Shown one piece after another: positions 1-63,140 of a stretch of DNA of 64,000 nucleotides; within the stretch, counting starts at the first letter, position 1; each line of letters begins with the position of its first letter. This DNA comes from an uncultured Gammaproteobacteria bacterium (GTDB lineage: Bacteria > Patescibacteriota > Patescibacteriia > Magasanikbacterales > UBA922). The notes under the pieces were generated by a model. That model saw only the letters and a list, made by a program, of their open reading frames with translations, made no database searches and was not told the DNA's origin. The stretch spans positions 108,215 through 172,214 of the forward strand of contig CAYFPM010000001.1 in NCBI GenBank assembly GCA_964345045.1, read 5' to 3'. The position numbers were made by a program, and so were the translations under genes.

Positions 1-885
1 TCGGAAAACGAAGTTAATATCCACAAAGAAGTTTGCAAGGCTCTTGGTCTAAAGGGAAGAATTTTGATGAATGAAGATGGAATAAACGGAACCGTTGGTG
101 GTAGAAAAGAAGCTATAGAAATGTATAAAAGCTACATGGACAATCATAAGATTTTTAAAAATATTGATTGGAAAGAAAGTACTAGTGAAATTGAGCCATT
201 TCCAAAATTGAGAGTACGCTATAGAAAAGAAATTATTACCACAGACGCCAAAGAAGATATAGATATTTGTGCCAGAGGCAACCATGTAGATAGAGACACT
301 TTTCATGGGTGGTTGAAAAATAACGAAGACATGGTGATACTCGATATGCGCAATGATTATGAATGGGAAATTGGCAGATTTGTAAATTCAGTTCGTCCAC
401 CAATGAAATATTTTCGTGATCTAAAGGACAACATGGATTTTTATGATCAATTCAAAGATAAAAAAATTGTAATGTTTTGTACAGGAGGAATTCGTTGTGA
501 ACCGGCTAGTGCTTATTTTATTGCCAAAGGTTTTGATCCCAAAAATCTTTATCAACTAGAAGGTGGAATTGTAAAGTACGCCGAGAAGTATGGTAACGAA
601 GGTTATTACGAAGGTAAATGTTTTGTGTTTGACGAACGTTTGGCTGTGCCGGTAGACACTAGTGAAAACGCCAAGATTATTGGGAACTGTTTACACTGCA
701 ATAATTCTTGCGATGTGTATCGCAATTGTGCCAACCGTAATTGCAACCAGCTTTTTATTGGTTGCAACGAGTGTACAATTGAATTTGAAAATACTTGTTC
801 GGCAGAATGCCAAGCTGTAATAAAAAATCCAGCCGAGATAAGACCTCCTAGAGTTGGGGCAAAAGTGTTGCATAGGAATAAATAA
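1..885 (+). CDS. trhO: tRNA uridine(34) hydroxylase TrhO (rhodanese domain; 5' end truncated by window edge)
   Basis: Frame 1 reads through from base 1 (..KEVCKALGLKGRILMNEDGINGTV..). Rhodanese active-site loop CTGGIRCE and a C-terminal Cys-rich tail typical of YceA/TrhO are present. Confidence 0.7.
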   Translation, partial: SENEVNIHKEVCKALGLKGRILMNEDGINGTVGGRKEAIEMYKSYMDNHKIFKNIDWKESTSEIEPFPKLRVRYRKEIITTDAKEDIDICARGNHVDRDTFHGWLKNNEDMVILDMRNDYEWEIGRFVNSVRPPMKYFRDLKDNMDFYDQFKDKKIVMFCTGGIRCEPASAYFIAKGFDPKNLYQLEGGIVKYAEKYGNEGYYEGKCFVFDERLAVPVDTSENAKIIGNCLHCNNSCDVYRNCANRNCNQLFIGCNECTIEFENTCSAECQAVIKNPAEIRPPRVGAKVLHRNK

Positions 886-890
886 TATTT

Positions 891-989
891 CTCCCCCTAT
901 TAGGGGGAGCTCGCCTGCCCCGATCGAAGCATCGGGGAGGGGGTCTGGAATAAGATTTGACCCCACCTAACCTCCCCTGATAGGGGAGG
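891..989. repeat. Composite GC-rich hairpin repeat (CTCCCCCTATTAGGGGGAG ... CCTCCCCTGATAGGGGAGG); 77-nt core has an inverted copy at 50324-50400
   Basis: Reverse complement of 50324-50400 aligns to 891-967 with few mismatches. The small palindromes are visible directly. Confidence 0.8.
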
Positions 990-1018
990 AAAAAAAAATC
1001 CGCTTTACGGATTTTTTT
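990..1018. terminator. Bidirectional intrinsic terminator between trhO (+) and rpmB (-)
   Basis: AAAAATCCG-CTTTAC-GGATTTTTTT hairpin flanked by A-run and T-run. Confidence 0.6.
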
Positions 1019-1049
1019 GTTACATGCTGCGTGTTACAGGCTACATGCT

Positions 1050-1214
1050 TTAGGCGGCTTGTTTGGCCAAGGTGCGGATGCATTTGGTGCATACAAGCAT
1101 ATTGCCCATTTTTTGTACGTTTACATTTTGGCGACGTAAGGTTTTGTTTTTGGCGTGGCTGCGGTTGGCAGCTTTTTGAGAACCTTTGTCGCATCTTTCA
1201 CATTTTTTGGCCAT
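1050..1214 (-). CDS. rpmB: 50S ribosomal protein L28
   Basis: Internal start MAKKCERCDKGSQKAANRSHAKNKTLRRQNVNVQK matches the L28 family. The longer 69-aa ORF has a non-conserved N-terminus. TATAAT lies 3 nt upstream of the ATG on the minus strand. Confidence 0.75.
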   Translation of the reverse strand: MAKKCERCDKGSQKAANRSHAKNKTLRRQNVNVQKMGNMLVCTKCIRTLAKQAA

Positions 1215-1405
1215 AGGATTATAGAGGCTAGAAAGGCTGGAGAGGCTATATATGCCCAAACAGCTTATTTACACTTTGATATAAATTATGAATGCATATA
1301 TAATATGCAAATACAGTGAAGCGATTATATATTGTAAACGCTGACTTGTCAAGTGTAAGCCTCTCAAGCCTCTTTGGCTGCTTTAGCTTCTTAAGCCTTT
1401 TTCTC

Positions 1406-2026
1406 ATGTCTTTCTTACCCCTTATATTCTTCTTTATTGTTATTATCCCCTCGGCGATCCTGCACGAGTATATGCATGGTTGGGTAGCCGACCAGCTAGG
1501 AGACCCTACGGCTAGGTATGCTGGCCGCCTTACTCTAGATCCTAGATCTCATATAGATCCTATGGGTACTTTTATTATGCCAATTGCTTTGTTTTTGCTT
1601 AGTGGTGGTAGTTTTATGTTTGCCTATGCCAAGCCGGTTCCCTACAATCCATTCAATTTGCGTGCTGGCAGATGGGGGCCACTATACGTGGCTGTTGCCG
1701 GTCCATTATCCAATTTTTTATTAGCTTTTGTATTTGGGCTTATTATTCAATTTGTACCGGTTTCTGCCAGTTTGGCTTCTGTACTTTCTATTATTGTGTA
1801 TGCCAATGTTTTGCTCGGCGTGTTTAACTTGGTTCCAATTCCACCGCTCGACGGCTCCAAAGTTTTATTTGCCTTACTCCCAGACTCAGCTTATCGTATC
1901 AAAGCTGGGCTAGAGCGTTATGGTTTTGTAATTCTTATTTTCTTTGTTTTCTTTTTCTTTCGTATTATTAGTCCAATTATAAATTATCTTTTTTATCTTT
2001 TTACCGGTGGAGTAGGAGGATTCTGA
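1406..2026 (+). CDS. Zinc metalloprotease, peptidase M50 (site-2 protease) family; possible longer form from GTG 1316
   Basis: HEYMHGW (HExxH) lies in the first TM segment and an LDG motif (PPLDGSKV) is present downstream. The protein is polytopic and hydrophobic. Confidence 0.6.
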   Translation: MSFLPLIFFFIVIIPSAILHEYMHGWVADQLGDPTARYAGRLTLDPRSHIDPMGTFIMPIALFLLSGGSFMFAYAKPVPYNPFNLRAGRWGPLYVAVAGPLSNFLLAFVFGLIIQFVPVSASLASVLSIIVYANVLLGVFNLVPIPPLDGSKVLFALLPDSAYRIKAGLERYGFVILIFFVFFFFRIISPIINYLFYLFTGGVGGF

Positions 2027-2065
2027 TTTTGACGCATGACACTTGAAACTTGACACAATTTTGTC

Positions 2066-2110
2066 TAATCAAAAAAAGCCTACTTATGTAAGCTTTTTTT
2101 GATTGATTTC
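2066..2110. repeat. AT-rich hairpin repeat/terminator copy 1 (AATCAAAAAAAGCCTACTTATGTAAGCTTTTTTTGATTG)
   Basis: Near-identical copies at 2494-2540 and 3089-3135. Stem is AAAAAAAGC/GCTTTTTTT. Confidence 0.8.
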
Positions 2111-2132
2111 GATGGGGCATGCTTGCTTATCT

Positions 2133-2441
2133 CTAGAGCTCTGTGAGGCGCCTTTGGATCTCTTCTAGTAGCAAGCGTGCTTTGCTGAAGTTGTAGCCGT
2201 GTGTTCTGGCAGCCTTTCGCGCCTTGTCGCTATTTGGATCACCTGCTATTGCGGCTTCGTAGCTAACTCCGGCAACCAGCGATGTTGTAGCTAGCTCACT
2301 AACCATGGCAGACAAGCTCATGGTTGAAAGTTGCCCTGGCACTTCTTGCTGGGCAGCTGCTGTGCCTGTGGTGTAGAAGTCACCTCTTAGGTATTCCAGA
2401 TCAGTTGAGTCTTGTTCAAAATCATCGGGCAATAGTCCCAT
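2133..2441 (-). CDS. Hypothetical protein (about 50% GC, strong AAGGAG RBS); island gene
   Basis: ORF with AAGGAG 7 nt upstream of the ATG. GC is far above the native background. No recognisable domain. Confidence 0.45.
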   Translation of the reverse strand: MGLLPDDFEQDSTDLEYLRGDFYTTGTAAAQQEVPGQLSTMSLSAMVSELATTSLVAGVSYEAAIAGDPNSDKARKAARTHGYNFSKARLLLEEIQRRLTEL

Positions 2442-2493
2442 CGAAAGATCTCCTTGTTTTTAAACTAGTTTTTTTGTACTTTTTTGTCAAATA

Positions 2494-2540
2494 TCAAAAA
2501 ACAAAAAAAGCCTACTTATGTAAGCTTTTTTTGATTGGGG
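2494..2540. repeat. AT-rich hairpin repeat/terminator copy 2
   Basis: Same 36-nt core as 2070-2105. Confidence 0.8.
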
Positions 2541-2569
2541 TCGATTGTCGAGTTTGTTATTCAGGCGAG

Positions 2570-3046
2570 TCATCGACCATCTCCTTCTACTCCTTTATCT
2601 GTTTCAAACAGATTCCAGTACCTATCAATAAGAGCGGTTCTGTCGGCTACCCCCAATTCACGGCAAAGTTTTCTGACATGATACTTGATAGTTCTAGTTT
2701 TCACGTTAGGGACAAGTTGCTCAGCTATCTCTCTGTTTGAGAGTCCTTCTGCTAGTAGAGTCCAGACTTCCATCTGTCTTTTTGATATGGATTCTGGTTT
2801 GGGGTTTTTTGGTTTTTGATCCGAGCATCTTTTGTGTCTGGCAATCAAATCGTAGGATGTAGAGCAGCCCTTCACTTTTTTTAGGATATTTTGGATATGA
2901 AATTTGACTGTTCTTGGGTTGAGACCCAGTTGATCAGCTATTTCTTGGTTGGTGGGCTTTTTGCTTGGAGAAGTGAGTAGGTCGTAGACCTGCCTCTGCA
3001 TACGAGTGAGACCAAGAGGGTCTTTTTTTGTATGTATGTTTGCCAT
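2570..3046 (-). CDS. Transcriptional regulator with two tandem LuxR/GerE-type HTH domains
   Basis: Two repeats of the L(T/S)xRExEVxxLLAxGxSNxEIAxQLxxSxxTVKxHxxNIxxKL pattern (residues about 15-65 and 90-145). Confidence 0.6.
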   Translation of the reverse strand: MANIHTKKDPLGLTRMQRQVYDLLTSPSKKPTNQEIADQLGLNPRTVKFHIQNILKKVKGCSTSYDLIARHKRCSDQKPKNPKPESISKRQMEVWTLLAEGLSNREIAEQLVPNVKTRTIKYHVRKLCRELGVADRTALIDRYWNLFETDKGVEGDGR

Positions 3047-3088
3047 TACACAAATATAAAAGCATATTTTTTTATTTAAATCAAGCTT

Positions 3089-3135
3089 TGAGAATCAAAA
3101 AAAGCCTACGTATGTAAGCTTTTTTTGATTGGGGC
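3089..3135. repeat. AT-rich hairpin repeat/terminator copy 3
   Basis: Same core with one substitution (CTACGTATG). Confidence 0.8.
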
Positions 3136-3214
3136 CGAGTTGTGTGTTCTGTCACTTCTCGGCAGAGGTTCTCCTTTCTTTGCGTCGGTTCTGAGCGGGG
3201 GCGTCAGCTTCCGA

Positions 3215-3934
3215 TCAGCCCTCGACGTCGAGGTAGCTGGGTTCGTCCTGCCCGGGGCGCGAGCGCGAGAAGAGCCAATCGATGCAGGGCTTGATGGCGC
3301 CCACCATCTTGGCTTCATCGAGCTGTCCCATGAAGCTGGGAATGCGGAACGAATACCCCGGCATAGGCAGACGAGAATCCGTAGTATTGTAGTTCCGTTC
3401 TTGCGTGGTGTTCAAGAGACCTGCCGTCCGAAATGAGTTCGCTCCTGGAGCAGACGCGAGCCCAATACGACCAAGGGGGCTACGGTGGGCCGTCTTTTTG
3501 ATCGCTTTGTGCTCCCATTTGAATTTGGCGACGAAGCGAATGTCTCGTTCGTCAATGGCGGAGTGTTGGATCGAGAGATCCACATTGTCCCAGTCGATGA
3601 GATCTCCAGCCGACTGGAGAGAGTCTGCTCCTTGATCGGCGGGGGTGCTTTCGGTTCCCACGGTGTAGAGGACTTTTCGACCATCCTCCATGAGCGAGAC
3701 CCTCACCCCCTTCTTGAGGGGGATCTGGGTTGTTGCCGAGAGGTGGTATTTCGGAGTCTCCTTGGTCGCGGTGACCAAGATCGCGCGGCCGTTATCGGCC
3801 GGGGACACCTGGATGTTTCCTTCCGGGATGTCCGCGAAGACGGTGATTTTCTCTCGGCACTGGTCGGCCGCCATCGAGGTGGTCGGGCTGAAGATGAATA
3901 GGCTCAAAAGAGCCAAAATCAGGCTACGATACAT
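3215..3934 (-). CDS. Secreted hypothetical protein (signal peptide; about 60% GC; AAGGAG RBS)
   Basis: N-terminal MYRSLILALLSLFIFSPTTSMA signal peptide. Strong SD is present. GC is far above the flanking DNA. Confidence 0.55.
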   Translation of the reverse strand: MYRSLILALLSLFIFSPTTSMAADQCREKITVFADIPEGNIQVSPADNGRAILVTATKETPKYHLSATTQIPLKKGVRVSLMEDGRKVLYTVGTESTPADQGADSLQSAGDLIDWDNVDLSIQHSAIDERDIRFVAKFKWEHKAIKKTAHRSPLGRIGLASAPGANSFRTAGLLNTTQERNYNTTDSRLPMPGYSFRIPSFMGQLDEAKMVGAIKPCIDWLFSRSRPGQDEPSYLDVEG

Positions 3935-4032
3935 CGTGTACTCCTTGCGGCCAAAGCCGCTTTGTTGCTTGCTTACTCCCCATCAAATAATGGCAGCTCG
4001 CAGCTAAAAAATATATCAGTAAAATAAGTTTT

Positions 4033-4077
4033 TGTCAACCTCTATTGACAAAAAAAAGTATATATAGTAGAGTGTAG
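4033..4077. promoter_or_regulatory. Divergent sigma70-like promoters with back-to-back -35 boxes (TTGTCAACCTCTATTGACAA); plus-strand TTGACA-N18-TAGAGT
   Basis: Palindromic paired TTGACA hexamers. A TATATT -10 lies on the minus strand about 17 nt from its -35. Confidence 0.45.
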
Positions 4078-4215
4078 CCAATCTATTGGGGTTGCTTTGC
4101 AAGCCCTAGAACGGAGTATCCAATCTGTATCATTAAAAAATGCTATAGAATTGGAGAAGTGCCTCGGGTCAGTCCTGGGAGACACGTTCGAGAATTCTTC
4201 TACAAAAAAGATTTT

Positions 4216-4245
4216 CGAGCCTCCGTACCAACGGAGATTTTTATT
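4216..4245 (+). terminator. Intrinsic terminator/attenuator hairpin (CTCCGTACCAACGGAG + ATTTTTATTT) in the rpsL upstream region
   Basis: 6-bp GC stem with a 4-nt loop followed by a T-rich tract. Confidence 0.45.
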
Positions 4246-4249
4246 TATT

Positions 4250-4337
4250 AAAGAAGCTGTAGAAGCCAGAAAGGCCAGAGAGGCTAGAATGCCTCTTAAG
4301 CCTCTTAAGCTTCTTAAGCCTCCCAAGCTTTTAATAT
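4250..4337 (+). promoter_or_regulatory. 95-bp periodic (9-nt) leader element abutting the rpsL start codon; copy 1
   Basis: AAGAAGCTGTAGAAGCCAGAAAG GCCAGAGAG GCTAGAATG CCTCTTAAG CCTCTTAAG CTTCTTAAG CCTCCCAAG CTTTTAATAT-ATG. About 90% identical to 4748-4843. Confidence 0.7.
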
Positions 4338-4757
4338 ATGCCAACAATGAATCAGGTGTTGCGCAAGGGCAGAAAGAAAAAGACTACCAAGTCAAAATCT
4401 CCTGCCATGCAATTCACCTACGACAGTTTGCACCGCAAGAAAACAGACTTGCGTAGAGGTGCTCCATTCAAAAGAGGTGTTTGTATCAAGGTAACAACCA
4501 AAACACCAAAAAAACCTAACTCTGCGTTGCGTAAGGTAGCTCGTGTCAGACTATCTAACGGAACCGAAGTTTGGGCTTATATCCCAGGTGAAGGACATGG
4601 ATTGCAAGAACACTCTGTAGTTCTAATCCGTGGAGGAAAAGTAAAAGACCTTCCAGGTGTAAAATATCATGTGGTTCGCGGTGTGTACGACACAACCGGA
4701 GTCGAGAATCGCAAACGTAGCCGTTCACTATACGGAACTAAGAAACCTAAATCATAA
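4338..4757 (+). CDS. rpsL: 30S ribosomal protein S12
   Basis: [14 protein letters not shown]...[11 protein letters not shown]...[25 protein letters not shown]. Canonical S12. Confidence 0.95.
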
Positions 4758-4843
4758 AGAAGCTGTAGAAGCCAGAAAGGCTAGAGAGGCTAAAAAGCCT
4801 CCTAAGCTTCTCAGGCCTCTTAAGCCTCTCAAGCTTTTAAAGT
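4748..4843 (+). promoter_or_regulatory. 95-bp periodic leader element abutting the rpsG start codon; copy 2
   Basis: Direct repeat of 4250-4337, ending AAGCTTTTAAAGT-ATGCCAAG. Confidence 0.7.
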
Positions 4844-5329
4844 ATGCCAAGAGGAAAAAGAATTCCGAAACGTGTAGTTTCTCCAGATTCAAGATACAAC
4901 AGTGTGCTTGTTTCCAAGTTCATTAATTTTGTAATGGAAAGAGGTAAAAAAACTGTAGCCGAAAAAATAGTGTACGGTGCTTTTGAAAAACTTGCCGAAA
5001 AGAAAAAAGGCGACGCTATTAAACTATTTGAACAAGTATTAGACATAATTAGACCACAAGTAGAGGTACGCTCTCGTAGAGTTGGTGGTGCCAACTACCA
5101 AGTACCTATGCCAGTAGCCAGTCATCGCCAAAACGCTTTGGCTTTTCGTTGGCTAGTAGGTGCTGCCAAAGCCAGAAGTGGCAAAACCATGCAAGACAAA
5201 CTAGCTATGGAAATGATGGATGTACTAGAAGGAACCGGTGGAGCTGTAAAGAAAAAAGAAGACGTCATTCGTATGGCCGAGGCCAACAAAGCCTTTGCCC
5301 ACTTCGCCAGATTTGGTGGCAGAAGATAA
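4844..5329 (+). CDS. rpsG: 30S ribosomal protein S7
   Basis: MPRGKRIPKRVV...VEVRSRRVGGANYQVP...AFAHF. Canonical S7. Confidence 0.95.
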   Translation: MPRGKRIPKRVVSPDSRYNSVLVSKFINFVMERGKKTVAEKIVYGAFEKLAEKKKGDAIKLFEQVLDIIRPQVEVRSRRVGGANYQVPMPVASHRQNALAFRWLVGAAKARSGKTMQDKLAMEMMDVLEGTGGAVKKKEDVIRMAEANKAFAHFARFGGRR

Positions 5330-5335
5330 TTAATA

Positions 5336-5427
5336 ATTAGTTCATCGCCAATAGCCAATAGTTAATAGTTATTAGATATAACTAAAACAAACGATTGGCT
5401 ATGAACGATGAACGATGAACTATTTAT
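5336..5427. repeat. Palindromic 90-nt intergenic element (AGTTCATCGCCAATAGCCAATAG ... ATTGGCTATGAACGATGAACT), family copy 1 of 4
   Basis: Long imperfect inverted repeat. Related copies at 24352-24458, 27318-27415 and 28912-28984. Confidence 0.75.
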
Positions 5428-7503
5428 ATGGCTAGAGAATATACCCTAGAAAAAACCCGCAACATCGGGATCATGGCGCATATCGACGCCGGAAAAACTA
5501 CTACCACCGAACGTGTCTTGTTTTATACTGGTAAAAAACACAAAATCGGTGAAACTCATGACGGTGAATCCGACATGGACTGGATGGAACAAGAAAAAGA
5601 GCGTGGTATTACTATTACTTCTGCTGCTACCACTTGTTTCTGGCAAAATAATCGTATCAACATTATCGATACTCCAGGTCACGTAGACTTTACTGTAGAA
5701 GTAGAGCGTTCACTACGTGTACTAGATGGTGCTTGTGCTGTTTTTGATGGTTCACAAGGTGTAGAACCACAAAGTGAAACCGTATGGCGCCAAGCCGACA
5801 AATACAAAGTACCTCGTATTTGTTTTGTAAACAAAATGGACAAAATGGGTGCAGATTTTTATATGAGTCTTAACTCAATTTTGGAACGTTTATCAGACAA
5901 AGCTGTTGCTATCCAACTTCCAATCGGAGCGGAAGGCGAATTTAGCGGTGTAATCGATCTTATCGAAAGAAAAGCTTCTAAATTTGAAGGCAACATGGGG
6001 ATCAATGTAGTAGAAATGGAAATCCCTGCCGACATGAAAGACCAAGTAGAAGAGTACCGTGCCAAAATGCTGGAAAAAGTAGCCGAAGCCGATGAAGAAA
6101 CCATGAATGCTTACCTAGAAAACGGTGACCTAACTACAGAACAAATCAAAGCTGCTATTAGAAAAATGGTAATTGCCGATGAACTTTATCCAGTATTATC
6201 TGGTTCTGCACTTGCCAACATTGGTGTACAAAAGATGCTAGATGCTGTTATCGATTACTTGCCATCTCCATTGGAAGTACCACCGCTAGAAGCAACTGAT
6301 GTAAATGACGAAAACAAAAAAGTAGAAATCAAACCAAGTGATGATGAAGCTTTTACTGCCTTGGCTTTCAAAATTGCTACTGATCCATACGTAGGAAAAT
6401 TGGCTTTTTTCCGTGTTTATTCTGGTTCTGTAAAAGCTGGTACCTATGTAGTAAACACTTCAACCGGTGCCAAAGAACGTATTGGTCGTATTGTTCGTCT
6501 ACATGCCAACAGCCGCGAAGAAGTAGACGAAGTATATGCTGGTGAGATTGCTGCTGCTATTGGTTTGAAATCTACCACTACCGGTAACACTCTTTGTGCC
6601 GAAAATCGTCAAGTAGTTTTGGAAAATATTAGTTTTCCAGAACCGGTTATCCATATTGCTATTGAACCAAACACCAAGCAAGATGCCGAAAAAATGAGTT
6701 TGGCTCTACAAAAATTGGCAGAAGAAGACCCAACCTTCAAGGTTCATACCGACGAAGAAACCATGCAAACTATTATTTCTGGAATGGGGGAACTTCACCT
6801 AGACATTATTGTAGATCGCATGAAACGTGAGTTTGGTGTAGAGGCCAATGTTGGTGCTCCGCAAGTAGCTTACAAAGAAACTATCCGTTCCGGTGCAGAA
6901 GGAGAAGGTAAATATGTAAAACAATCTGGTGGTCGTGGTCAATACGGTCACTGTTGGATCAAATTGGAACCAATGGAAGAAGGTGCAGACTTTGAATTCA
7001 TTGACGAAATCAAAGGTGGTACAATTCCAAAAGAATTTATTGGTCCTATCCAAAAAGGTATTAAAGAAGCTATGAGCAAAGGTATTGTAGCTGGTTACCA
7101 AATGGTAGATATCAAAGCTACAGTATACGATGGTAGTTACCATGATGTAGACTCTAGTGAAGTTGCCTTTAAAATGGCCGGATCTATGGCTTTTCAAGCT
7201 GCTGCCAAAAAAGCAGAACCTGTACTACTAGAACCGATCATGAAAGTAGAAGTAACTACTCCAGAAGAAAACATGGGAGACGTAATTGGAGACTTGTCTT
7301 CCAAACGTGGTCAAGTTCAAGAAATGACAGACCGTGGACAAAGCAAGGTAGTTCGTGCCGAAGTACCTTTGTCAGAAATGTTTGGTTATGTAACCAACCT
7401 ACGTAGTATGACCCAAGGTCGTGCCAGCTCCAACATGGAATTTTCTCACTACGCCGAATGTCCTAAAAACGTTGAGGCGCAGGTAGTAGAAGGTAAAAAG
7501 TAG
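5428..7503 (+). CDS. fusA: Elongation factor G
   Basis: [28 protein letters not shown]-motifs and a full-length EF-G architecture. Confidence 0.95.
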
Positions 7504-16328: not shown

Positions 16329-17822
16329 TTCATTGAGAGTTTGATCCTGGCTCAGGATGAACGTTGGCGGCGTGTCTAAGGCATGCAAGTCGAGCGACGG
16401 ACCCACTTCGGTGGGGGACCGAGCGGCAAACGGGTGAGTAACACATTGGTAACCTACCTCCGAGACGAGAATAGCTCATCGAAAGATGAATTAATACTCG
16501 ATAGTCATGAGGGGACGAAAGTCATTCTCATGTAAACCTCCGGGGCTCGGAGAGGGGCCTATGTCTGATTAGCTTGTTGGTAGGGTAAAAGCCTACCAAG
16601 GCGATGATCAGTAGCAGGCGTGAGAGCGTGACCTGCCTCACTGGGACTGAGACACTGCCCAGACTCCTACGGGAGGCTGCAGTCAAGAATATTCCGCAAT
16701 GGACGAAAGTCTGACGGAGCGACGCCGCGTGCAGGAAGACGCCCTTCGGGGTGTAAACTGCTTTTATTAGGGAAGAATTTGTGACGGTACCTAATGAATA
16801 AGAGGTTGCTAACTCTGTGCCAGCAGCAGCGGTAATACAGAGACCTCAAACGTTATCCGGATTTATTGGGCGTAAAGCGTCCGCAGGTTGTTTGGGAAGT
16901 CAGCGGTCAAATCTTCGGGCTTAACTCGAAGACTGCTACTGATACTCCCAGACTAGAGGCTGGAAGAGGCAAGCGGAATTTTCGGTGTAGTCGTAATAAG
17001 CGCTGATATCGAAAAGAACACCAAAGGCGAAGGCAGCTTGCTGGTACATGCCTGACACTCATGGACGAAAGCGTGGGTAGCGAATGGGATTAGATACCCC
17101 AGTAGTCCACGCCCTAAACGATGTCTACTAGGTATTGGAAGTATCGACCCTTTCAGTGCCGTTTAAAAAAGCTAACGCGTTAAGTAGACCGCCTGTGTAG
17201 TACGGCCGCAAGGCTAAAACATAAAGGAATAGACGGGGACCCGCACAAGCGGTGGATCATGCGGTTTAATTCGATGATACGCGGCGAACCTCACCCAGAC
17301 TTGACATGTAACTGCAAGCTCCTAGAAATAGGAGCCGCCTTCGAGGGTGTTACACAGGTGCTGCATGGTTGCCGTCAGCTCGTGCCGTGAGGTGTACCCT
17401 TAAGTGGGGTAACGAGCGCAACCCTCGTCTTGTGTTACATTGTACACAAGAGACTGCCCGGGCAACCGGGAGGAAGGTGAGGACGACGTCAAATCAGCAT
17501 GGCTCTTACGCCTTGGGCGACACACATGATACAATGGCCAGTACAACAGGTTGCCAACCCGCGAGGGGGAGCTAATCCTATAAAGCTGGTCTCAGTTCGG
17601 ATTGCAGGCTGCAACTCGCCTGCATGAAGTTGGAATCGCTAGTAAACGCGCATCAGCCACGGCGCGTTGAATACGTTCTCGGGTCTTGTACTCACCGCCC
17701 GTCACACCACGAAAGCTGGGGGCACCCGAAGGCTCTTTACGGGGACGAAGGTGAAACCAGTGATCAGGGTGAAGTCGTAACAAGGCATCCGTAGCGGAAG
17801 CTGTGGATGGATCACCTCCTTT
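16329..17822 (+). rRNA. rrs: 16S ribosomal RNA (complete, solitary)
   Basis: 5' AGAGTTTGATCCTGGCTCAG. Internal universal blocks GTGCCAGCAGCAGCGGTAATAC and GGATTAGATACCC. 3' end GGATCACCTCCTTT. No 23S follows. Confidence 0.95.
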
Positions 17823-18804: not shown

Positions 18805-19335
18805 ATGTCATTAGATCGACTTATCAGATTGTCACAAAAGACAGGGGACAAATTAATCGTACACGATCCAATAGAGGGGAATGACGTAGTTATAATGTCT
18901 GTAGATGCTTACGAATATCTGCTAGATATAGATACCTATGGCGAATTAGATGACAATTTTTCCCCTTGGGACGAAGATTTTATAGAAGATATTAATTTTT
19001 ACGATGGCAAAGAGGCTCGTTCTGATTGGCATAGTACTGCCGATGTTTTAGAAGAAAAAGCCTCTGATTTTAAAGAAGATTCAGATTGGATGGATCTTGC
19101 CGATGATCTGCCAGAAGAAGATTTTTTTGCAAAAGAAGATAACCTTGCCCCTGGTAGTTTGAACTGGGATATAGATACTTGGCAAGAAGATTCTCCAAAT
19201 GAAATGGAAATAAATACAGAAGGCCTGTCCATGGAAAAAGTATCAGAAGATGAAATTGATATAACTAGTTTGGAAAATACTTGGGAAGAGCAAAAACTTT
19301 CTGATGAACCAGTATTTTACGAGGAACCAGTTTAA
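18805..19335 (+). CDS. Highly acidic protein with a Phd/YefM-like N-terminal fold and a 130-aa D/E/W-rich tail
   Basis: N-terminal LIVHDPIEGNDVVIMSVDAYEYLLD resembles antitoxin Phd/YefM. The remainder is D/E-rich with repeated W/F. Confidence 0.45.
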   Translation: MSLDRLIRLSQKTGDKLIVHDPIEGNDVVIMSVDAYEYLLDIDTYGELDDNFSPWDEDFIEDINFYDGKEARSDWHSTADVLEEKASDFKEDSDWMDLADDLPEEDFFAKEDNLAPGSLNWDIDTWQEDSPNEMEINTEGLSMEKVSEDEIDITSLENTWEEQKLSDEPVFYEEPV

Positions 19336-24348: not shown

Positions 24349-24351
24349 ATT

Positions 24352-24458
24352 ACTAGTTCATAGCCAATAGTTCTTAGTTCATAAGTTGTAAGTATCTAGA
24401 AGATAAACAAATATGAAATAAAGACTATTGGCCGTGAACCAAGAACGATTAACTAAAA
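24352..24458. repeat. Palindromic intergenic element, family copy 2 (AGTTCATAGCCAATAGTTCTTAGTTCAT ... ATTGGCCGTGAACCAAGAACGATTAACT)
   Basis: Inverted-repeat arms. Same family as 5336-5427. Confidence 0.75.
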
Positions 24459-26945: not shown

Positions 26946-27317
26946 ATGATTCAACATAGAACAATCTTGAAAGTAGCAGACAATACAGGTGCCAAGAAGC
27001 TTATGTGTATTCGTGTTCTTGGTGGTTACAAAAAACGATATGCTCAAATTGGAGATGTTATTACTTGTACTGTAAAAGAAGCTGCTCCTCGTGGTATGGT
27101 AAAAAAGAGTGAGATCGTACACGCTGTGATTGTAAGACAACGTAAGGAAAAACGTCGTAAAGATGGAACTTATATCCGTTTTGATGAGAATTCTGCTGTA
27201 GTAATTGATAAAAAAACCAAAGAACCAAAAGGTACTCGTATCTTTGGCCCCATTGCCAGAGAACTACGTGGTAAAGGTTATCAAAAAATTGTATCATTAG
27301 CCCCAGAAGTTCTGTAG
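26946..27317 (+). CDS. rplN: 50S ribosomal protein L14
   Basis: [27 protein letters not shown]. Confidence 0.95.
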
Positions 27318-27415
27318 TAGTTCATAGCCAATAGTTCTTAGTTCATAGTGTGTAAGTAAAATATCTATGAAACAAAGACTATTGGCTACGAACCAAGAAC
27401 GATGAACTAATTATA
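27318..27415. repeat. Palindromic intergenic element, family copy 3
   Basis: TAGTTCATAGCCAATAGTTCTTAGTTCATAG...GACTATTGGCTACGAACCAAGAACGATGAACT. Confidence 0.75.
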
Positions 27416-27417
27416 TT

Positions 27418-28911: not shown

Positions 28912-28984
28912 TGGTTCATGGCCAATCGTCCATTGCCATTAATATTTGACGATTGGCGATTGGCTATGAACTAAGAACTACTTT
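28912..28984. repeat. Palindromic intergenic element, family copy 4 (shorter variant)
   Basis: GGTTCATGGCCAATCGTCCATTGCC...ACGATTGGCGATTGGCTATGAACTAAGAACT. Confidence 0.65.
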
Positions 28985-32484: not shown

Positions 32485-33456
32485 CTAAGCGCCACGGAAA
32501 GGACATTCTTCCAAACGTAGTTCCTTGATCACAGACTCTGGGGGGCAATATCGAAGTGGCTGGTTGAACCAGCGCTTCTCTTGGCTTCCTTCTTCTAGAC
32601 AGAAACCGCCGCATTCAGAGGTTTCCTCCTCGAAGTATTCAATGGCTCGTTCCACTACGCTACCTTTGTCACCAATAATCTGCTTGAGATCTTCAGCGAG
32701 GCCGACAGCGGCCTTGGTTCGCTTCTCTTGGTTTTGGGCTAGGCGCCGGTTGGCTTCTTCCACGTCCAGGCTTTCCGGAACCTCTAGCTGCTCAACTTGG
32801 CTTAGCCTGAGCGAAAACCACATTCGACCTAGCTGGACGATATCCAGTTGATCATTACTCTGACGTAGTGCATCTTCGATAACCGGGATCGCTCCGCGGA
32901 TACCCAGGATCATCAGAGCAATTCGTGCTTGGTTCTTTGTGGCTAGATCGATTCGGTTGTTGATGAGAGCGTCGTGGACGACGCGGCGAGCCACAACTTG
33001 CCAGGCAAGTCCGCAAAATACGGCGTCATACTCCTTGAATTCATCGAATCCATGCAGGTTGAGCGCTTCCGATGCCTCTACAAGCATGGAGTAAGCATGC
33101 TGTCGCTGTCCGATCTGGTTGGCGGCGAGCAGGTTGGCCGCGGCGCAGGCCAGCGAGGCTCCCTGCCCGGTTGCGAAGCCGGTCCAGGTGCTGGGCCACT
33201 TGGTGCAGACACGGGGTTCAACCTGGAGACCCCTGATCTTGTTGTCGGTGTTGATGGGGTCGTCTTTGGCTAGAAGAGACGGGGTGATGTGTAGTGCACA
33301 TCTGTTTTCGTGTCGTGGGGTCATCGTGTCCGCGATGGGATTCTGCAGAAGAGGTTCCTTTTGGACGGGGGTGTTGGTAGATGTTTCGTGACACCCACTA
33401 GTTATGGTAGCGAACAGGACGAGGATGTTGACGATTGCCGAGTTGCTTTTCAGCAT
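32485..33456 (-). CDS. GC-rich (about 58%) putative lipoprotein inserted between secY and adk
   Basis: Signal peptide with lipobox (ITSGC). GAAAGGA RBS. Codon usage and GC clearly differ from neighbours. C-terminal Cys-containing tail. Confidence 0.55.
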   Translation of the reverse strand: MLKSNSAIVNILVLFATITSGCHETSTNTPVQKEPLLQNPIADTMTPRHENRCALHITPSLLAKDDPINTDNKIRGLQVEPRVCTKWPSTWTGFATGQGASLACAAANLLAANQIGQRQHAYSMLVEASEALNLHGFDEFKEYDAVFCGLAWQVVARRVVHDALINNRIDLATKNQARIALMILGIRGAIPVIEDALRQSNDQLDIVQLGRMWFSLRLSQVEQLEVPESLDVEEANRRLAQNQEKRTKAAVGLAEDLKQIIGDKGSVVERAIEYFEEETSECGGFCLEEGSQEKRWFNQPLRYCPPESVIKELRLEECPFRGA

Positions 33457-36891: not shown

Positions 36892-37911
36892 CTATTTGTG
36901 GAATACCACACCCTCTGAGCCGAGGGAGAAGACGATTCCTCGTCCACTCTCTACCATGGCCATATAGCATCTCTGATTGGCCTTGAGCTTGTCGCTGCAA
37001 TAACTCGCGGTCACTTGACCTAGGTGGTAGAGCTGCTCCTCGCCAAAGGCGCGCAGAGGCTGGTGGTTGTAGGTCGCGTAGGCCAGGTTCCGGCGCTCGC
37101 CGTTGACCGGACGGATGTAGAACCCAAGCTGTACGGTAGGGTCTGCCATCATTTGACCCAAGAGCTTGCGTTCACTACGGTTCAGCCTAGCGGCTCGAGA
37201 CCTCAGGACTAGTTCTGTTGCGATCTTTTCCAGCAGATCCCAGCGAGCGTGGGCCATCTTCTCGAGTGCCTCCAAGGCCTTTTGTGATCCATCCTTGTAG
37301 GGGGTCTCTACCTTGAAGGTGATGACTCGGAGATCTCCGTTGAACATCCTGTTGAAGTAGGCCAATAGGACCTCGACCTGGGGCTCGGTGCGAGTCGCCC
37401 TGTACACTGGAGCCAGGAGACCTGTTCTCTCCATGGGGCCAGCGATAGTGACTTCGAATTGGTTTAACCCGACATGCCGGATGCCCTGAACGTGCCACTG
37501 GTGCAGCTTGGGTTTGCCTGCATCTCGTGCAGCTGCCAGGCGTTGCATCTCAGCTTGGGCGTGCTGAAAGTGGTGGCGCCAGGCCTGCTCAGCATCCTCC
37601 ATCTTTGCAAAGGGTGCCTTGAAGGTGATGCCCTGGAGATCTTCGAACCTATCGACACCGTGAAACGGCATGATCGTGAGGTTGAAGTAGCTCCTACAGA
37701 TCAGAGCAGGCGCTCTTGGGTCGGTGACTGGCTTGATCAAGAGACATTGGCTAAGCCGTGCCCCTCTGTAGTTCGGGGTGTAGCTGGTGGTGTGGATCAC
37801 CTTCCAGGTGTGAAGCTTGGGCGGCTTTTTGGCCTCGGCTTCTGGGGTGGTCAGCAGGTTGAAGACAGCCGCCACAACCAGAATCAAAAGAGCGGTTAGA
37901 GTTCGACGCAT
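36892..37911 (-). CDS. GC-rich secreted hypothetical protein with internal tandem duplication
   Basis: The start was chosen at MRRTL.. (signal peptide) with GGGAGG RBS. Two homologous halves (KPPKLHTWKV...FKAPFAKMEDAEQAWRHHFQ and KPKLHQWHVQ...FKVETPYKDGSQKALEALEK). About 58% GC. Confidence 0.6.
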   Translation of the reverse strand: MRRTLTALLILVVAAVFNLLTTPEAEAKKPPKLHTWKVIHTTSYTPNYRGARLSQCLLIKPVTDPRAPALICRSYFNLTIMPFHGVDRFEDLQGITFKAPFAKMEDAEQAWRHHFQHAQAEMQRLAAARDAGKPKLHQWHVQGIRHVGLNQFEVTIAGPMERTGLLAPVYRATRTEPQVEVLLAYFNRMFNGDLRVITFKVETPYKDGSQKALEALEKMAHARWDLLEKIATELVLRSRAARLNRSERKLLGQMMADPTVQLGFYIRPVNGERRNLAYATYNHQPLRAFGEEQLYHLGQVTASYCSDKLKANQRCYMAMVESGRGIVFSLGSEGVVFHK

Positions 37912-42228: not shown

Positions 42229-42690
42229 ATGAGCCAGCCGAGTATCAATCTTGGAGCTTTTGGAGGAGGAAGAGAGCAAGATCTAGCCAGGATATTGGTA
42301 AAGATGGAGCCCAGCTATGATTTGTTGATGGCCTTGGCACACGAATTGGATGTGACCAGGCCGGAGGCTACTCGTAGGTGGCAGCAGCTCTTGTACTATC
42401 TGGTGACTTTGTTTTACATGCGGTATGTAATCGATCGTATCGACTATACCGAAAAGTTCACGCAGCTGCCCAGCACTTTCGCGCCCATGTGGAAACTTTT
42501 TTGTGATGCGAGTAGTGAAGGGGTTCGCCTTTTCGAGGGCAATTATTTCCCCGGCTGGAACTGGCAGTGGCGTGAGTCGGGAGAGTACGAACCTTGTGAG
42601 AGGATCGATGCTGAGTTCGTAGCCATAGTTGTAGATGTGGCAGAGGATTTACTAGGTATCCCCGTCGACAGAGAGCTCTGGCAGCTATAG
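42229..42690 (+). CDS. Hypothetical protein (about 50% GC, AAAGGAGGAAG RBS); island gene
   Basis: The start was chosen at MSQPS with a strong SD. W-rich, no known domain. Confidence 0.45.
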   Translation: MSQPSINLGAFGGGREQDLARILVKMEPSYDLLMALAHELDVTRPEATRRWQQLLYYLVTLFYMRYVIDRIDYTEKFTQLPSTFAPMWKLFCDASSEGVRLFEGNYFPGWNWQWRESGEYEPCERIDAEFVAIVVDVAEDLLGIPVDRELWQL

Positions 42691-42794
42691 CCAGCCCAAC
42701 AACCGATCTCGACTGAGAAGCGAAAGTACTAGCATTTCGCGATCGGACAATTCAAATTTTAGAGGCACCTGTTGGTTTTGGATTATAAACATAC

Positions 42795-42875
42795 CAGGTA
42801 GTCCTACTTTATTGCTGTGGAATGAAGCTCTCTTCGCTCTCGCAAACGTCCTCGCGGCGAAAGTAGGACTACCTG
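42795..42875. repeat. Long hairpin: perfect 16-bp stem (CAGGTAGTCCTACTTT/AAAGTAGGACTACCTG) enclosing a 50-nt GC-rich loop
   Basis: The inverted repeat is read directly from the sequence. Confidence 0.7.
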
Positions 42876-42996
42876 TGTTATAACTTACTTAATCCAAAGT
42901 CTGTTAGCAGGTGTTTTTTATTTTACTAATCCTTAGAAATTATGCTATAATTTACAAACTTCAATAATCAAAAAAATAGCTAAAATTAGCCAAAAT

Positions 42997-50261: not shown

Positions 50262-50405
50262 AATTCCTCCCCTATGAAGGGAGGTTAGCCCGCCTGCATT
50301 GCTTTGCGAAGCATTGCGGGCAGGGTGGGGTCAAATTTTATACCAGACCCTCTCCCCGATGCTTCGATCGGGGCAGGCCAGCTCCCCCTGATAGGGGGAG
50401 AGTTT
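50262..50405. repeat. Composite GC-rich hairpin repeat; 50324-50400 is the inverted copy of 891-967
   Basis: TCCTCCCCTATGAAGGGAGG ... CTCCCCCTGATAGGGGGAG. Reverse-complement identity with 891-967. Confidence 0.8.
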
Positions 50406-50437
50406 TTTAATAAAGCGAAGATTGCCTTGGGGAGGGG

Positions 50438-62561: not shown

Positions 62562-63140
62562 ATGTTAGTCGTAGAAAAAAAATTTCCAGTGGTGTACAGT
62601 CTTCTCGATGGTAAAGTCACTGAGATTCACTCGGAATGGGTGCGGCTGGAAGAGCTGGCTGCCATGGTGGGTATGCCTCCTCGGAAGGTTTTCAAGGCCT
62701 TCCGTCTGCTTGCACATATCAGCCAAATAGCCGGTAAGGTCCCGGTTCTACACTGGGCGACAGAAGATGGATTTTGTTGCGACCTCGGTATGCAAGACGG
62801 TCACCCAGATCCGGAAGCACATCAGTTCAATGGGCTATACGTGCCCAGCAGCTGGGTTCACAAGGTGCTCGAGGCCGTGAAATACGAAGTCACCAAACTC
62901 AAAATAGTCGAAATGAAAGTAGATGGAGAACATGAAAATACCGGTGTAGGGTATCAAAGGTGGATTCCGCCTGGGGTTGCACGAGTGTTGGATTCTACCG
63001 TTGACTCGGGTAGTACCAATTGCCGGTTCGTCATGGCCTATACAGGCTCTAGAGGGCAAACACCATTGTCTCCGGATCGCTCTCATTTCATGAGAAAGGG
63101 GACTAGTTATCAGGTTCTACGAAACAACAAAGAGGTTTAG
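62562..63140 (+). CDS. GC-rich hypothetical protein (GGAGGGG RBS) downstream of the tRNA-Arg scar; island gene
   Basis: 192-aa ORF, about 53% GC, strong SD. No known domain. Confidence 0.5.
   Translation: MLVVEKKFPVVYSLLDGKVTEIHSEWVRLEELAAMVGMPPRKVFKAFRLLAHISQIAGKVPVLHWATEDGFCCDLGMQDGHPDPEAHQFNGLYVPSSWVHKVLEAVKYEVTKLKIVEMKVDGEHENTGVGYQRWIPPGVARVLDSTVDSGSTNCRFVMAYTGSRGQTPLSPDRSHFMRKGTSYQVLRNNKEV

Follow-up and report, generated by a model that had tools for sequence, protein, structure and literature searches.

Stacked gene units with a repeated terminator-like hairpin between an M50 peptidase gene and rpsL in a patescibacterial genome

Phage morons, known from lambdoid phages, are independent promoter-gene-terminator units of atypical composition inserted between two genes. 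Repetitive extragenic palindromic (REP) sequences and REPINs are dispersed elements with copy numbers in the tens to hundreds, linked to a REP-associated tyrosine transposase (RAYT), and CRISPR arrays consist of 28-48 nt repeats and spacers of about 30-40 nt, usually with cas genes. Promoter-early stem-loop (PeSL) cassettes lie in hyperplastic regions of T4-type phages (PMC2839356, PMC4122927), where stem-loop/promoter repeats flank ORFans and recombine via less than 50 bp of homology, with mini-circles of 400-1400 bp (PMC2839356). The attC sites of integrons are defined by R and L boxes with conserved AAC...GTT, unpaired central spacers, extrahelical bases, and a variable terminal structure of 20-100 nt, and clusters of such sites without an integrase are called CALINs (PMC4889954). 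Here we analyze three consecutive minus-strand open reading frames (ORF1, ORF2, and ORF3), each followed by a copy of the same AT-rich hairpin, which lie between genes for an M50-family peptidase and ribosomal protein S12 (rpsL) in a 64,000-nt stretch of an uncultured bacterium of the Patescibacteriota (contig CAYFPM010000001.1, positions 108,215 to 172,214; hereafter the window; Table 1). The reading that we favor, and to which we give an even chance, is that the array is a stack of three self-contained, moron-like units (promoter, ORF, and terminator) in an insertion hot spot, in which a native-style terminator was copied as units were added.

The closest described counterpart is the PeSL cassette. 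In the array, as with PeSLs, a repeated terminator-like stem-loop separates consecutive small ORFan genes, a putative sigma-70-type promoter follows within about 10 nt, and the units would be insulated; the unit sizes of 432 and 594 nt fall within the PeSL mini-circle range of roughly 400-1400 bp, and gain and loss of PeSLs via less than 50 bp of homology requires no integrase. However, the array resides in a cellular genome with no phage genes nearby, only its stem-loop is conserved whereas PeSLs conserve the promoter too, and its genes are compositionally foreign. Mini-circles are documented for PeSLs, and for the array they would be hypothetical. Promoter-like boxes follow two of the hairpins (TTGACA 9 nt past copy B and TTGATT 9 nt past copy C), and the promoter parts are not significantly similar to each other. 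The resemblance to PeSLs appears to be functional and not one of family membership. ORF1 and ORF3 resemble morons in that each comes with a promoter-like site and a terminator hairpin of its own and differs sharply in composition from its neighbors. Unlike morons, the array lies outside a prophage, stacks three units that share one terminator sequence, and includes one gene, ORF2, that is not atypical. We did not assign the array to the phage morons proper, as the unit structure and atypical composition hold for ORF1 and ORF3 but the neighbors are the M50 peptidase gene and rpsL, with no phage context. The locus is a variant of moron-like or PeSL-like cassette stacking, in an unusual host.

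Table 1. Coordinates of the array and its borders in the window
Feature	Position	Strand	Properties
M50-family peptidase gene	1406-2026	+	left border of the hot spot
Hairpin copy A	2067-2105	-	exact; 40 nt after M50 peptidase stop (+), 27 nt after ORF1 stop (-)
ORF1	2133-2441	-	102 aa; GC 0.51, GC3 0.49; orphan; three-helix prediction, low confidence
ORF1 5' region	2442-2498	-	SD AAGGAG 2450-2455; weak -10 TAGTTT 2462-2467; -35 TTGACA 2485-2490; GC 0.25
Hairpin copy B	2499-2537	-	32 nt after ORF2 stop; 7-nt tandem duplication in A/T run, extra bases 2492-2498
ORF2	2570-3046	-	158 aa; two tandem GerE/LuxR-type HTH domains; GC 0.42, GC3 0.38; without SD
ORF2 promoter-like region	3047-3092	-	-10 TATATT 3053-3058; GC 0.20
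Hairpin copy C	3093-3131	-	83 nt after ORF3 stop; single loop substitution T to G
ORF3 transcript-shaped GC-rich segment	3132-4003	-	3' UTR GC 0.59; CDS 3215-3934; 5' UTR GC 0.54; SD AAGGAG 3941-3946
ORF3	3215-3934	-	239 aa; signal-peptide-like N-terminus; GC 0.58, GC3 0.71
ORF3 promoter	4004-4040	-	TTGACA 4033-4038, 17 nt, TG-TATATT 4010-4015; near-consensus; GC 0.22
rpsL (ribosomal protein S12)	4338-4757	+	right border of the hot spot
GC3, GC content at third codon positions; SD, Shine-Dalgarno site; HTH, helix-turn-helix; UTR, untranslated region; CDS, coding sequence.

A first-pass annotation of this stretch had described an almost identical 45-nt element after each of the three ORFs, at 2066, 2494, and 3089. 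The three copies are real, as are the ORFs themselves (a small protein, a double-LuxR-HTH protein, and a signal-peptide-like secreted candidate), but the element is 39 nt long and those coordinates were a few bases off. The element, AATCAAAAAAAGCCTACTTATGTAAGCTTTTTTTGATTG, occurs three times on one strand of the window with 0, 1, and 1 mismatches in copies A, B, and C, respectively, and dinucleotide-preserving shuffles predicted 0.00 copies. Its palindrome is laid out as a run of seven A's, a 6-bp stem, and a run of seven T's. Repeat finding (family D7) extended the similarity on the gene side to about 47 nt at 87-91% identity. Beyond this unit, local alignments of the flanks were no better than those of shuffled controls (p>0.1), so that the repeat unit is essentially the palindrome itself. 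A longer repeat unit of terminator plus promoter was dropped, since the shared GACAAAA and CCCC are suggestive by eye but not significant against shuffles. Copies B and C each stand one change away from A and two changes away from each other; from its sequence, copy B is more readily explained as copy A with a 7-nt tandem duplication, (CAAAAAA)x2, rather than as a substitution.

The fold of this element is that of a candidate terminator. As minus-strand RNA, the hairpin forms a perfect 17-bp stem, including a G-U wobble, with a 4-nt loop, whereas plus-strand RNA has a C-A mismatch in place of the wobble and folds less stably. The folding energy of copy A was -20.3 kcal/mol for the minus-strand RNA (z -8.1) and -18.3 kcal/mol for the plus-strand RNA, and those of copies B and C were -17.3 kcal/mol (z -5.7) and -19.6 kcal/mol (z -6.6), respectively. 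Because all three copies derive from one sequence, the strand asymmetry of the fold amounts to one observation and is weak evidence for function on the minus strand. On the transcript, a U7 run directly follows the core stem, and the copies thereby show the stable stem-loop, the U-run, and the position after a stop codon that mark Rho-independent terminators. Native terminator-like hairpins of the window, among them those at 992, 12236, 19362, 47709, and 48142, have the same A-run/stem/loop/stem/T-run design, each with its own stem sequence. Copy A is the sole terminator-like structure between the convergent M50 peptidase gene and ORF1, and the hairpin can for this reason be read as a bidirectional intrinsic terminator. 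Given the structure, we infer that the hairpin terminates transcription as a native-style, bidirectional Rho-independent terminator.

In the sequence searched, the hairpin was confined to the array, one chance-like match aside. No further copy was present in the 64-kb window and in 6.8 kb and 9.8 kb of additional sequence (about 80.6 kb together, or 13% of the genome), nor was there a match in JGI metagenomes or IMG/VR. An exact-pattern search of GTDB species genomes, a collection that lacks the source genome, returned one unrelated, chance-like terminator in a metagenome-assembled genome of a gut member of the Bacilli. A scan of positions 800-5500 against Rfam identified no family apart from noise. 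The terminators of the M50 gene in relatives all differ in sequence, which indicates that the three copies are recent intragenomic duplicates and not a conserved sequence.

The composition of the genes is consistent with different origins or ages for members of the array. Native genes of the window have a mean GC content of 0.38, slightly above the 35% put forward in the first-pass annotation, and a median GC3 of 0.29 (robust standard deviation, 0.07). Against this background, ORF3 is a clear outlier in GC3 and ORF1 is an outlier, while ORF2 falls within the native range (z about 1), so that the description of a GC-rich three-gene cassette does not hold for ORF2. The strong AAGGAG ribosome-binding sites proposed for two ORFs were borne out: AAGGAG lies 8 nt (ORF1) and 7 nt (ORF3) before the ATG, and its duplexes with the anti-SD sequence have energies of -8.3 and -7.8 kcal/mol, respectively. 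The other 47 genes scored, with ORF1 and ORF2 among them, average -1.0 kcal/mol. Native genes are essentially without SD sites across the window, and many of their start codons stand directly behind AT-rich, -10-like sequences. Among the genes of the window, a strong SD site goes with high GC3 (Fisher p=3e-4). Since the 3' end of the 16S rRNA retains CCUCC, the AAGGAG sites of ORF1 and ORF3 are usable. The 16S rRNA gene itself is located at 16329-17822 and is not linked to a 23S gene; taken with the SD-less native genes and a source contig of only 621 kb, this suggests an organism of the candidate-phyla-radiation type. We found no directly relevant literature on SD-less bacteria of the candidate phyla. 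Considering the GC3 and SD contrasts together with their orphan status, ORF1 and ORF3 look foreign.

Each unit also has its own promoter-like sequence. The sigma-70-type promoter of ORF3 matches the consensus at 11 of 12 positions, and by the same consensus matching the sites of ORF1 and ORF2 are weaker. Only 6 nt separate the end of the -10 box of ORF2 from the ATG, as would be expected of a leaderless transcript. The GC-rich stretch of ORF3 spans its putative untranslated regions and ends abruptly at the hairpin (GC 0.28) on one side and at the promoter on the other. This promoter stands back to back with a plus-strand TTGACA at 4045 that faces rpsL. Five copies of an extended -35 motif, TTGACAAAAA, are present in the window (0.8 expected), and three of them are at the array: 2481-2490(-) in the ORF1 promoter, 4029-4038(-) in the ORF3 promoter, and 4045-4054(+) in the divergent promoter facing rpsL.

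To place the array in its lineage, we compared eleven loci with homologues of the M50 peptidase (56-70% identity). The M50 and rpsL genes are adjacent in five of the eleven, and these differ in what lies between the two genes: nothing in L016 (about 80 nt), one low-GC gene in L015 (methyltransferase-like by reading of its sequence), and two low-GC genes in each of L013 and L014. In the closest relative, L010 (EF-G 76% identical), the gap contains one GC-rich (0.52), SD-led, minus-strand gene for a lipoprotein-like product, and this gene uses the M50 gene's own terminator, whose sequence differs from that of the array hairpin. L011, from a 632-kb contig with GC 0.50 (SPJK01035479.1), carries a homologue of the 1152-aa gene of the window between M50 and rpsL, and two consecutive GC-rich units with their own promoters are found directly upstream of rpsL (L011 13719-15000); the terminators of both units carry the stem ACGCCCT..GAGGCGT (2 matches versus 0.00 expected). 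These comparisons identify the M50-rpsL gap as a lineage-wide insertion hot spot. The first-pass annotation had named two observations that would speak against serial insertion at the hairpin, namely, a hairpin common behind native genes and homologues of the ORFs at the same locus in relatives. We looked for both and found neither: within about 80 kb no native gene was followed by the hairpin, and homologues of the ORFs were missing from this locus in relatives. Its proposal of serial insertion of foreign genes thus stands in part: two of the three genes look foreign, the locus is a hot spot, and the hairpin copies are recent local duplicates, but the likeness to attC, a donor among the Actinobacteria, and a GC-rich character of all three genes are not supported.

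A second case of shared 3' hairpins is found in the same genome. Two genes of the GCS2 family in a neighboring block (L001), without BLASTP similarity to each other, are each followed by a 34-nt AT-rich hairpin (17159-17192 and 18843-18876; 88% identical). Together with the unit pair of L011, this pair is a parallel to the array in that neighboring GC-rich units share 3' hairpins. The block, just left of the window (L001 14000-20720), comprises four GC-rich (0.57-0.61) genes with AT-rich spacers; two of the four have SD-like sites, three belong to the GCS2 family, and the two pairs compared had no BLASTP similarity.

Taken together with the hot spot, these observations are consistent with the following order of events for the favored stack of units. 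The ancestor would have resembled L010, with the M50 gene, one shared terminator, and one GC-rich gene for a secreted protein, which here would be ORF3. Insertion of ORF2 and ORF1 between this terminator and the resident gene would have followed, with one extra hairpin copy left each time; an L010-like ancestor and two later insertions give exactly three hairpins. Copy A would also end the convergent M50 transcript, and copies B and C would block read-through of each unit into the next and, finally, antisense transcription into M50. Copying of the hairpin may have occurred by recombination at the short hairpin homology, through small circles or unequal exchange, for which a dedicated integrase is not needed. 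The foreign origin of the genes, the order of their arrival, and this mode of copying are, like terminator activity, what we infer from the features above.

Several points weigh against this reading. The promoters and terminators of the array are predictions from consensus matching and folding only, and the putative -10 box of ORF1 is weak, with three of six matches. The promoter parts beside the hairpins lack conservation between copies, unlike those of true PeSLs. ORF2, the supposed later insert, is native-like in composition, and ORF3, the supposed first resident, is the least ameliorated, which would fit the proposed order only if the donors differed in GC content. The available homology of 39-47 bp is short for RecA-type recombination, and the search for further hairpin copies covered only 13% of the genome. 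Finally, repeated hairpin families flank native genes as well, and hairpins may spread independently of gene insertion.

The last of these points concerns other palindromes of the window. Hairpins with a 9-nt period (GAAGCCAGA and AAGCCTCTT types; -35 kcal/mol) at 4249-4344 and 4755-4850 end right before the start codons of rpsL and rpsG, and arms related to them occur at 1205-1400, around the promoter region of L28 and M50. A family of hairpins of about 100 nt (arms GTTCATAGCCAATAG and CTATTGGCTATGAAC; -30 kcal/mol) at 5335-5425, 24351-24456, 27315-27416, and about 28920-28980 is found immediately in front of fusA and of three further genes in the ribosomal-protein cluster. A third, GC-rich and highly structured repeat of about 100 nt, CTCCCCCTA.TAGGGGGAG ... 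GCCTGCCCCGATC.AAGCATCGGGGAGGGGGTCTGG, is intergenic in three places, at 889-990(+), about 50320-50420(-), and L001 16938-17045, and has no Rfam match.

Because such families adjoin native ribosomal-protein genes, repeated hairpins are not specific to foreign genes, and since intergenic palindromes multiply locally beside native genes too, a terminator hairpin that spread on its own stays a rival of the stack of inserted units. The hairpin would then be a small mobile or self-copying palindrome of the REP/REPIN kind or a miniature inverted-repeat transposable element, or a product of local gene conversion, that colonized three intergenic spaces, and its link with foreign genes would be incidental. 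The 9-nt-periodic and 100-nt families clustered beside ribosomal-protein genes, the dispersed GC-rich repeat, and the coincidence of the sharp repeat edges with the palindrome are all in keeping with this explanation. We nevertheless consider it unlikely, as there are three copies only in about 80 kb, all inside 1.1 kb and all in the same orientation and post-stop position, and as the public collections searched held no copies, the chance-like GTDB match aside. Nor did the window scan described below detect a RAYT, IS200/IS605-type, or other transposase. The hairpin does share with REP sequences, bacterial interspersed mosaic elements, and REPINs the form of an imperfect extragenic palindrome, about 35-40 nt long, at the 3' ends of genes, with potential as a terminator or transcript stabilizer, but those families differ from three copies at one locus with no RAYT gene in the window scan. 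Membership in the REP/REPIN elements was rejected on the same count, with three copies within 1.1 kb, none elsewhere in about 80.6 kb, and no HUH or other transposase in the window scan.

We also weighed whether a dedicated site-specific system could have built the array. Such a system would rely on an integrase from another part of the genome, of integron-like, Xer/dif-module-like, or Cas1/casposase-like type, and the palindrome would be duplicated or regenerated each time a cassette is captured. Sharp-edged direct repeats do enclose segments the size of a gene (432 and 594 nt), the presence of three copies for two inserts fits a target duplication, and orphan and secreted products are often found in integron cassettes. 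Furthermore, a reading of the palindrome as two 12-nt arms with a 6-nt center is possible, which is the core geometry of tyrosine recombinases; an 11-6-11 XerC/XerD core geometry can likewise be fitted to the hairpin, with no recombinase in the window scan, and part of the hairpin, TTATGTAAGCT, may resemble a XerD arm.

The first-pass annotation had likened the hairpin to an attC boundary and had suggested a search for a nearby tyrosine or serine recombinase. An attC-like site is not supported by the published criteria (PMC4889954), because the hairpin has no GTT/AAC pair at its ends, no unpaired spacer, and no bulged or extrahelical bases; its 17-bp stem is paired throughout and its loop is 4 nt long. 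A Pfam scan of the non-ribosomal ORFs of the window (those outside the ribosomal-protein block at about 19.6-32.3 kb) and the Pfam annotation of the flanks revealed no gene for a tyrosine or serine recombinase, a transposase, or a Cas protein; the window does encode DprA and RecO. A chromosomal dif site, which would be expected at the replication terminus, was dropped as a candidate since the GC skew does not change sign at the locus. In addition, the units have their own promoter-like sequences, and the hairpin resembles an ordinary native terminator. We therefore regard a site-specific system as quite improbable.

The array is like an integron or CALIN in its small ORFs of one orientation, each followed by an imperfect palindrome, in cassette-sized units, near-identical sites, and orphan or secreted products. 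It differs in the absence of R and L boxes, AAC/GTT, a central spacer, extrahelical bases, and IntI, in its loop of 4 nt rather than 20-100 nt, and in the promoter-like sites of its units; integron cassettes are generally promoterless and depend on a common Pc promoter. With Cas1-Cas2 of CRISPR systems and with casposons it shares insertion beside a palindromic repeat of about 30-48 nt that is duplicated, so that n inserts give n+1 repeats. This analogy is formal only, as the "spacers" of the array, at 393 and 555 nt, encode whole genes and no cas genes were found. A CRISPR array as such was ruled out by these protein-coding repeat intervals and by the lack of any cas match beyond generic HTH domains.

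Searches for the source of the three genes were mostly negative. ORF2 matches the GerE/LuxR HTH family in Pfam (E=4e-24), and neither ORF1 nor ORF3 has a family match in Pfam, NCBIfam, PHROGs, or PADLOC. In a word-indexed search of 5.8 billion proteins, ORF1 and ORF3 returned self-hits only and ORF2 returned self-hits and weak, generic GerE/HTH-domain matches only. With no close homologue of any ORF among billions of proteins, the high-GC Actinobacteria offered as a plausible donor in the first-pass annotation found no backing. One credible remote relative of ORF3, P0020 (259 aa), emerged when 1.84 billion representatives were scanned in full with HMMER; it aligns over its full length at 20-23% identity and has in common with ORF3 a signal-peptide-like start, a cysteine just behind it, and the motifs KWE.K, GY.[FW]RI, and PC. 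The P0020 gene (GC 0.52) is SD-led with a TTGACA promoter and forms a GC-rich island in an AT-rich genome (flank GC 0.26 and 0.40). AlphaFold models were poor (predicted local distance difference test scores of 52 and 68), and a Foldseek search of the PDB with the AlphaFold models returned nothing below E=0.2.

These searches bear on the possibility that the whole array arrived in one piece from a plasmid, a phage, or a related strain in which the hairpin was the standard terminator, and replaced or supplied the M50 terminator. The AT-rich promoters and hairpins share the regulatory grammar of the host, as expected of a donor from the same lineage, and the array is identical in all three samples in which it was assembled, with no intermediate forms. 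However, the ORFs differ strongly in GC3 (0.49, 0.38, and 0.71), which indicates different origins or ages, and L010 provides a plausible one-gene precursor at the same site. Searches made with ORF3 alone of the three ORFs found no relatives in phage and plasmid collections (tblastn) or in IMG/VR scans; IMG/VR likewise held no relative of the GC-rich window gene at 36892-37911. PHROGs gave no phage family match for any of the three ORFs other than HTH domains. We regard import in one piece as unlikely.

An artifact of assembly, in which GC-rich fragments of other organisms were joined through the short repeat, is so improbable as to be nearly negligible. Short-read contigs tend to break at hairpin B, and the contigs of two short-read assemblies end in or near it. 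Nevertheless, the array is identical in the assemblies of three samples of project PRJEB17505, which makes a chimera very unlikely. These independent assemblies were made by MEGAHIT with k=127 (judging by k127 contig names), which exceeds the repeat. The array is also present in Logan and within the 621,257-bp NCBI contig, and its AT-rich promoters adjoin the GC-rich ORFs within read length.

Finally, we considered a form of gene capture that has not been described. In very small, AT-rich genomes without SD sites, an enzyme from some other locus would place gene-sized, GC-rich, SD-led orphan units at terminator hairpins and duplicate the hairpin in the process, and the captured genes would come from a pool that stays GC-rich while circulating among such genomes; the process would be formally like integron capture or CRISPR repeat duplication. 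Two hints point in this direction, namely that the only detectable relative of ORF3, P0020 (about 20% identity), likewise forms a GC-rich, SD-led island within AT-rich surroundings and that two further arrays have common 3' hairpins. We would call this a long shot.

Isolated GC-rich, SD-led genes do occur elsewhere in the genome. The window contains four more (GC3 0.50-0.69), at 32485-33456(-), 36892-37911(-), 42229-42690(+), and 62562-63140(+), and others lie outside it at L023 3879-4193 and 6309-6752, as does the block of four GC-rich genes left of the window. The four window genes match no family in Pfam, NCBIfam, PHROGs, or PADLOC, and two of them have lipoprotein-like or signal-peptide-like N-termini. 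Each isolated GC-rich, SD-led gene adjoins a native terminator. Behind the gene at 42229-42690, about 220 nt of GC-rich sequence (42691-42910) with long inverted repeats, such as GTAGTCCTACTTT...AAAGTAGGACTAC, could be a structured 3' UTR or a small RNA.

If the hairpin is only a locally copied terminator, the array is a tidy case of ordinary horizontal gene transfer at a hot spot. The wider class of GC-rich, SD-led genes, at least seven in the 64 kb of the window and several of them encoding secreted or lipoprotein-like orphans, may matter more than the hairpin, and it raises the questions of who the donors are, why these genes stay GC-rich, and whether two modes of translation initiation in one cell separate accessory from core genes. 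If the stack of insulated units is the right reading, the locus would be a record of stepwise gene gain in an ultra-small, probably symbiotic bacterium, in which each gained gene would be packaged with a native-style promoter and a copied terminator that spare the essential genes on either side.

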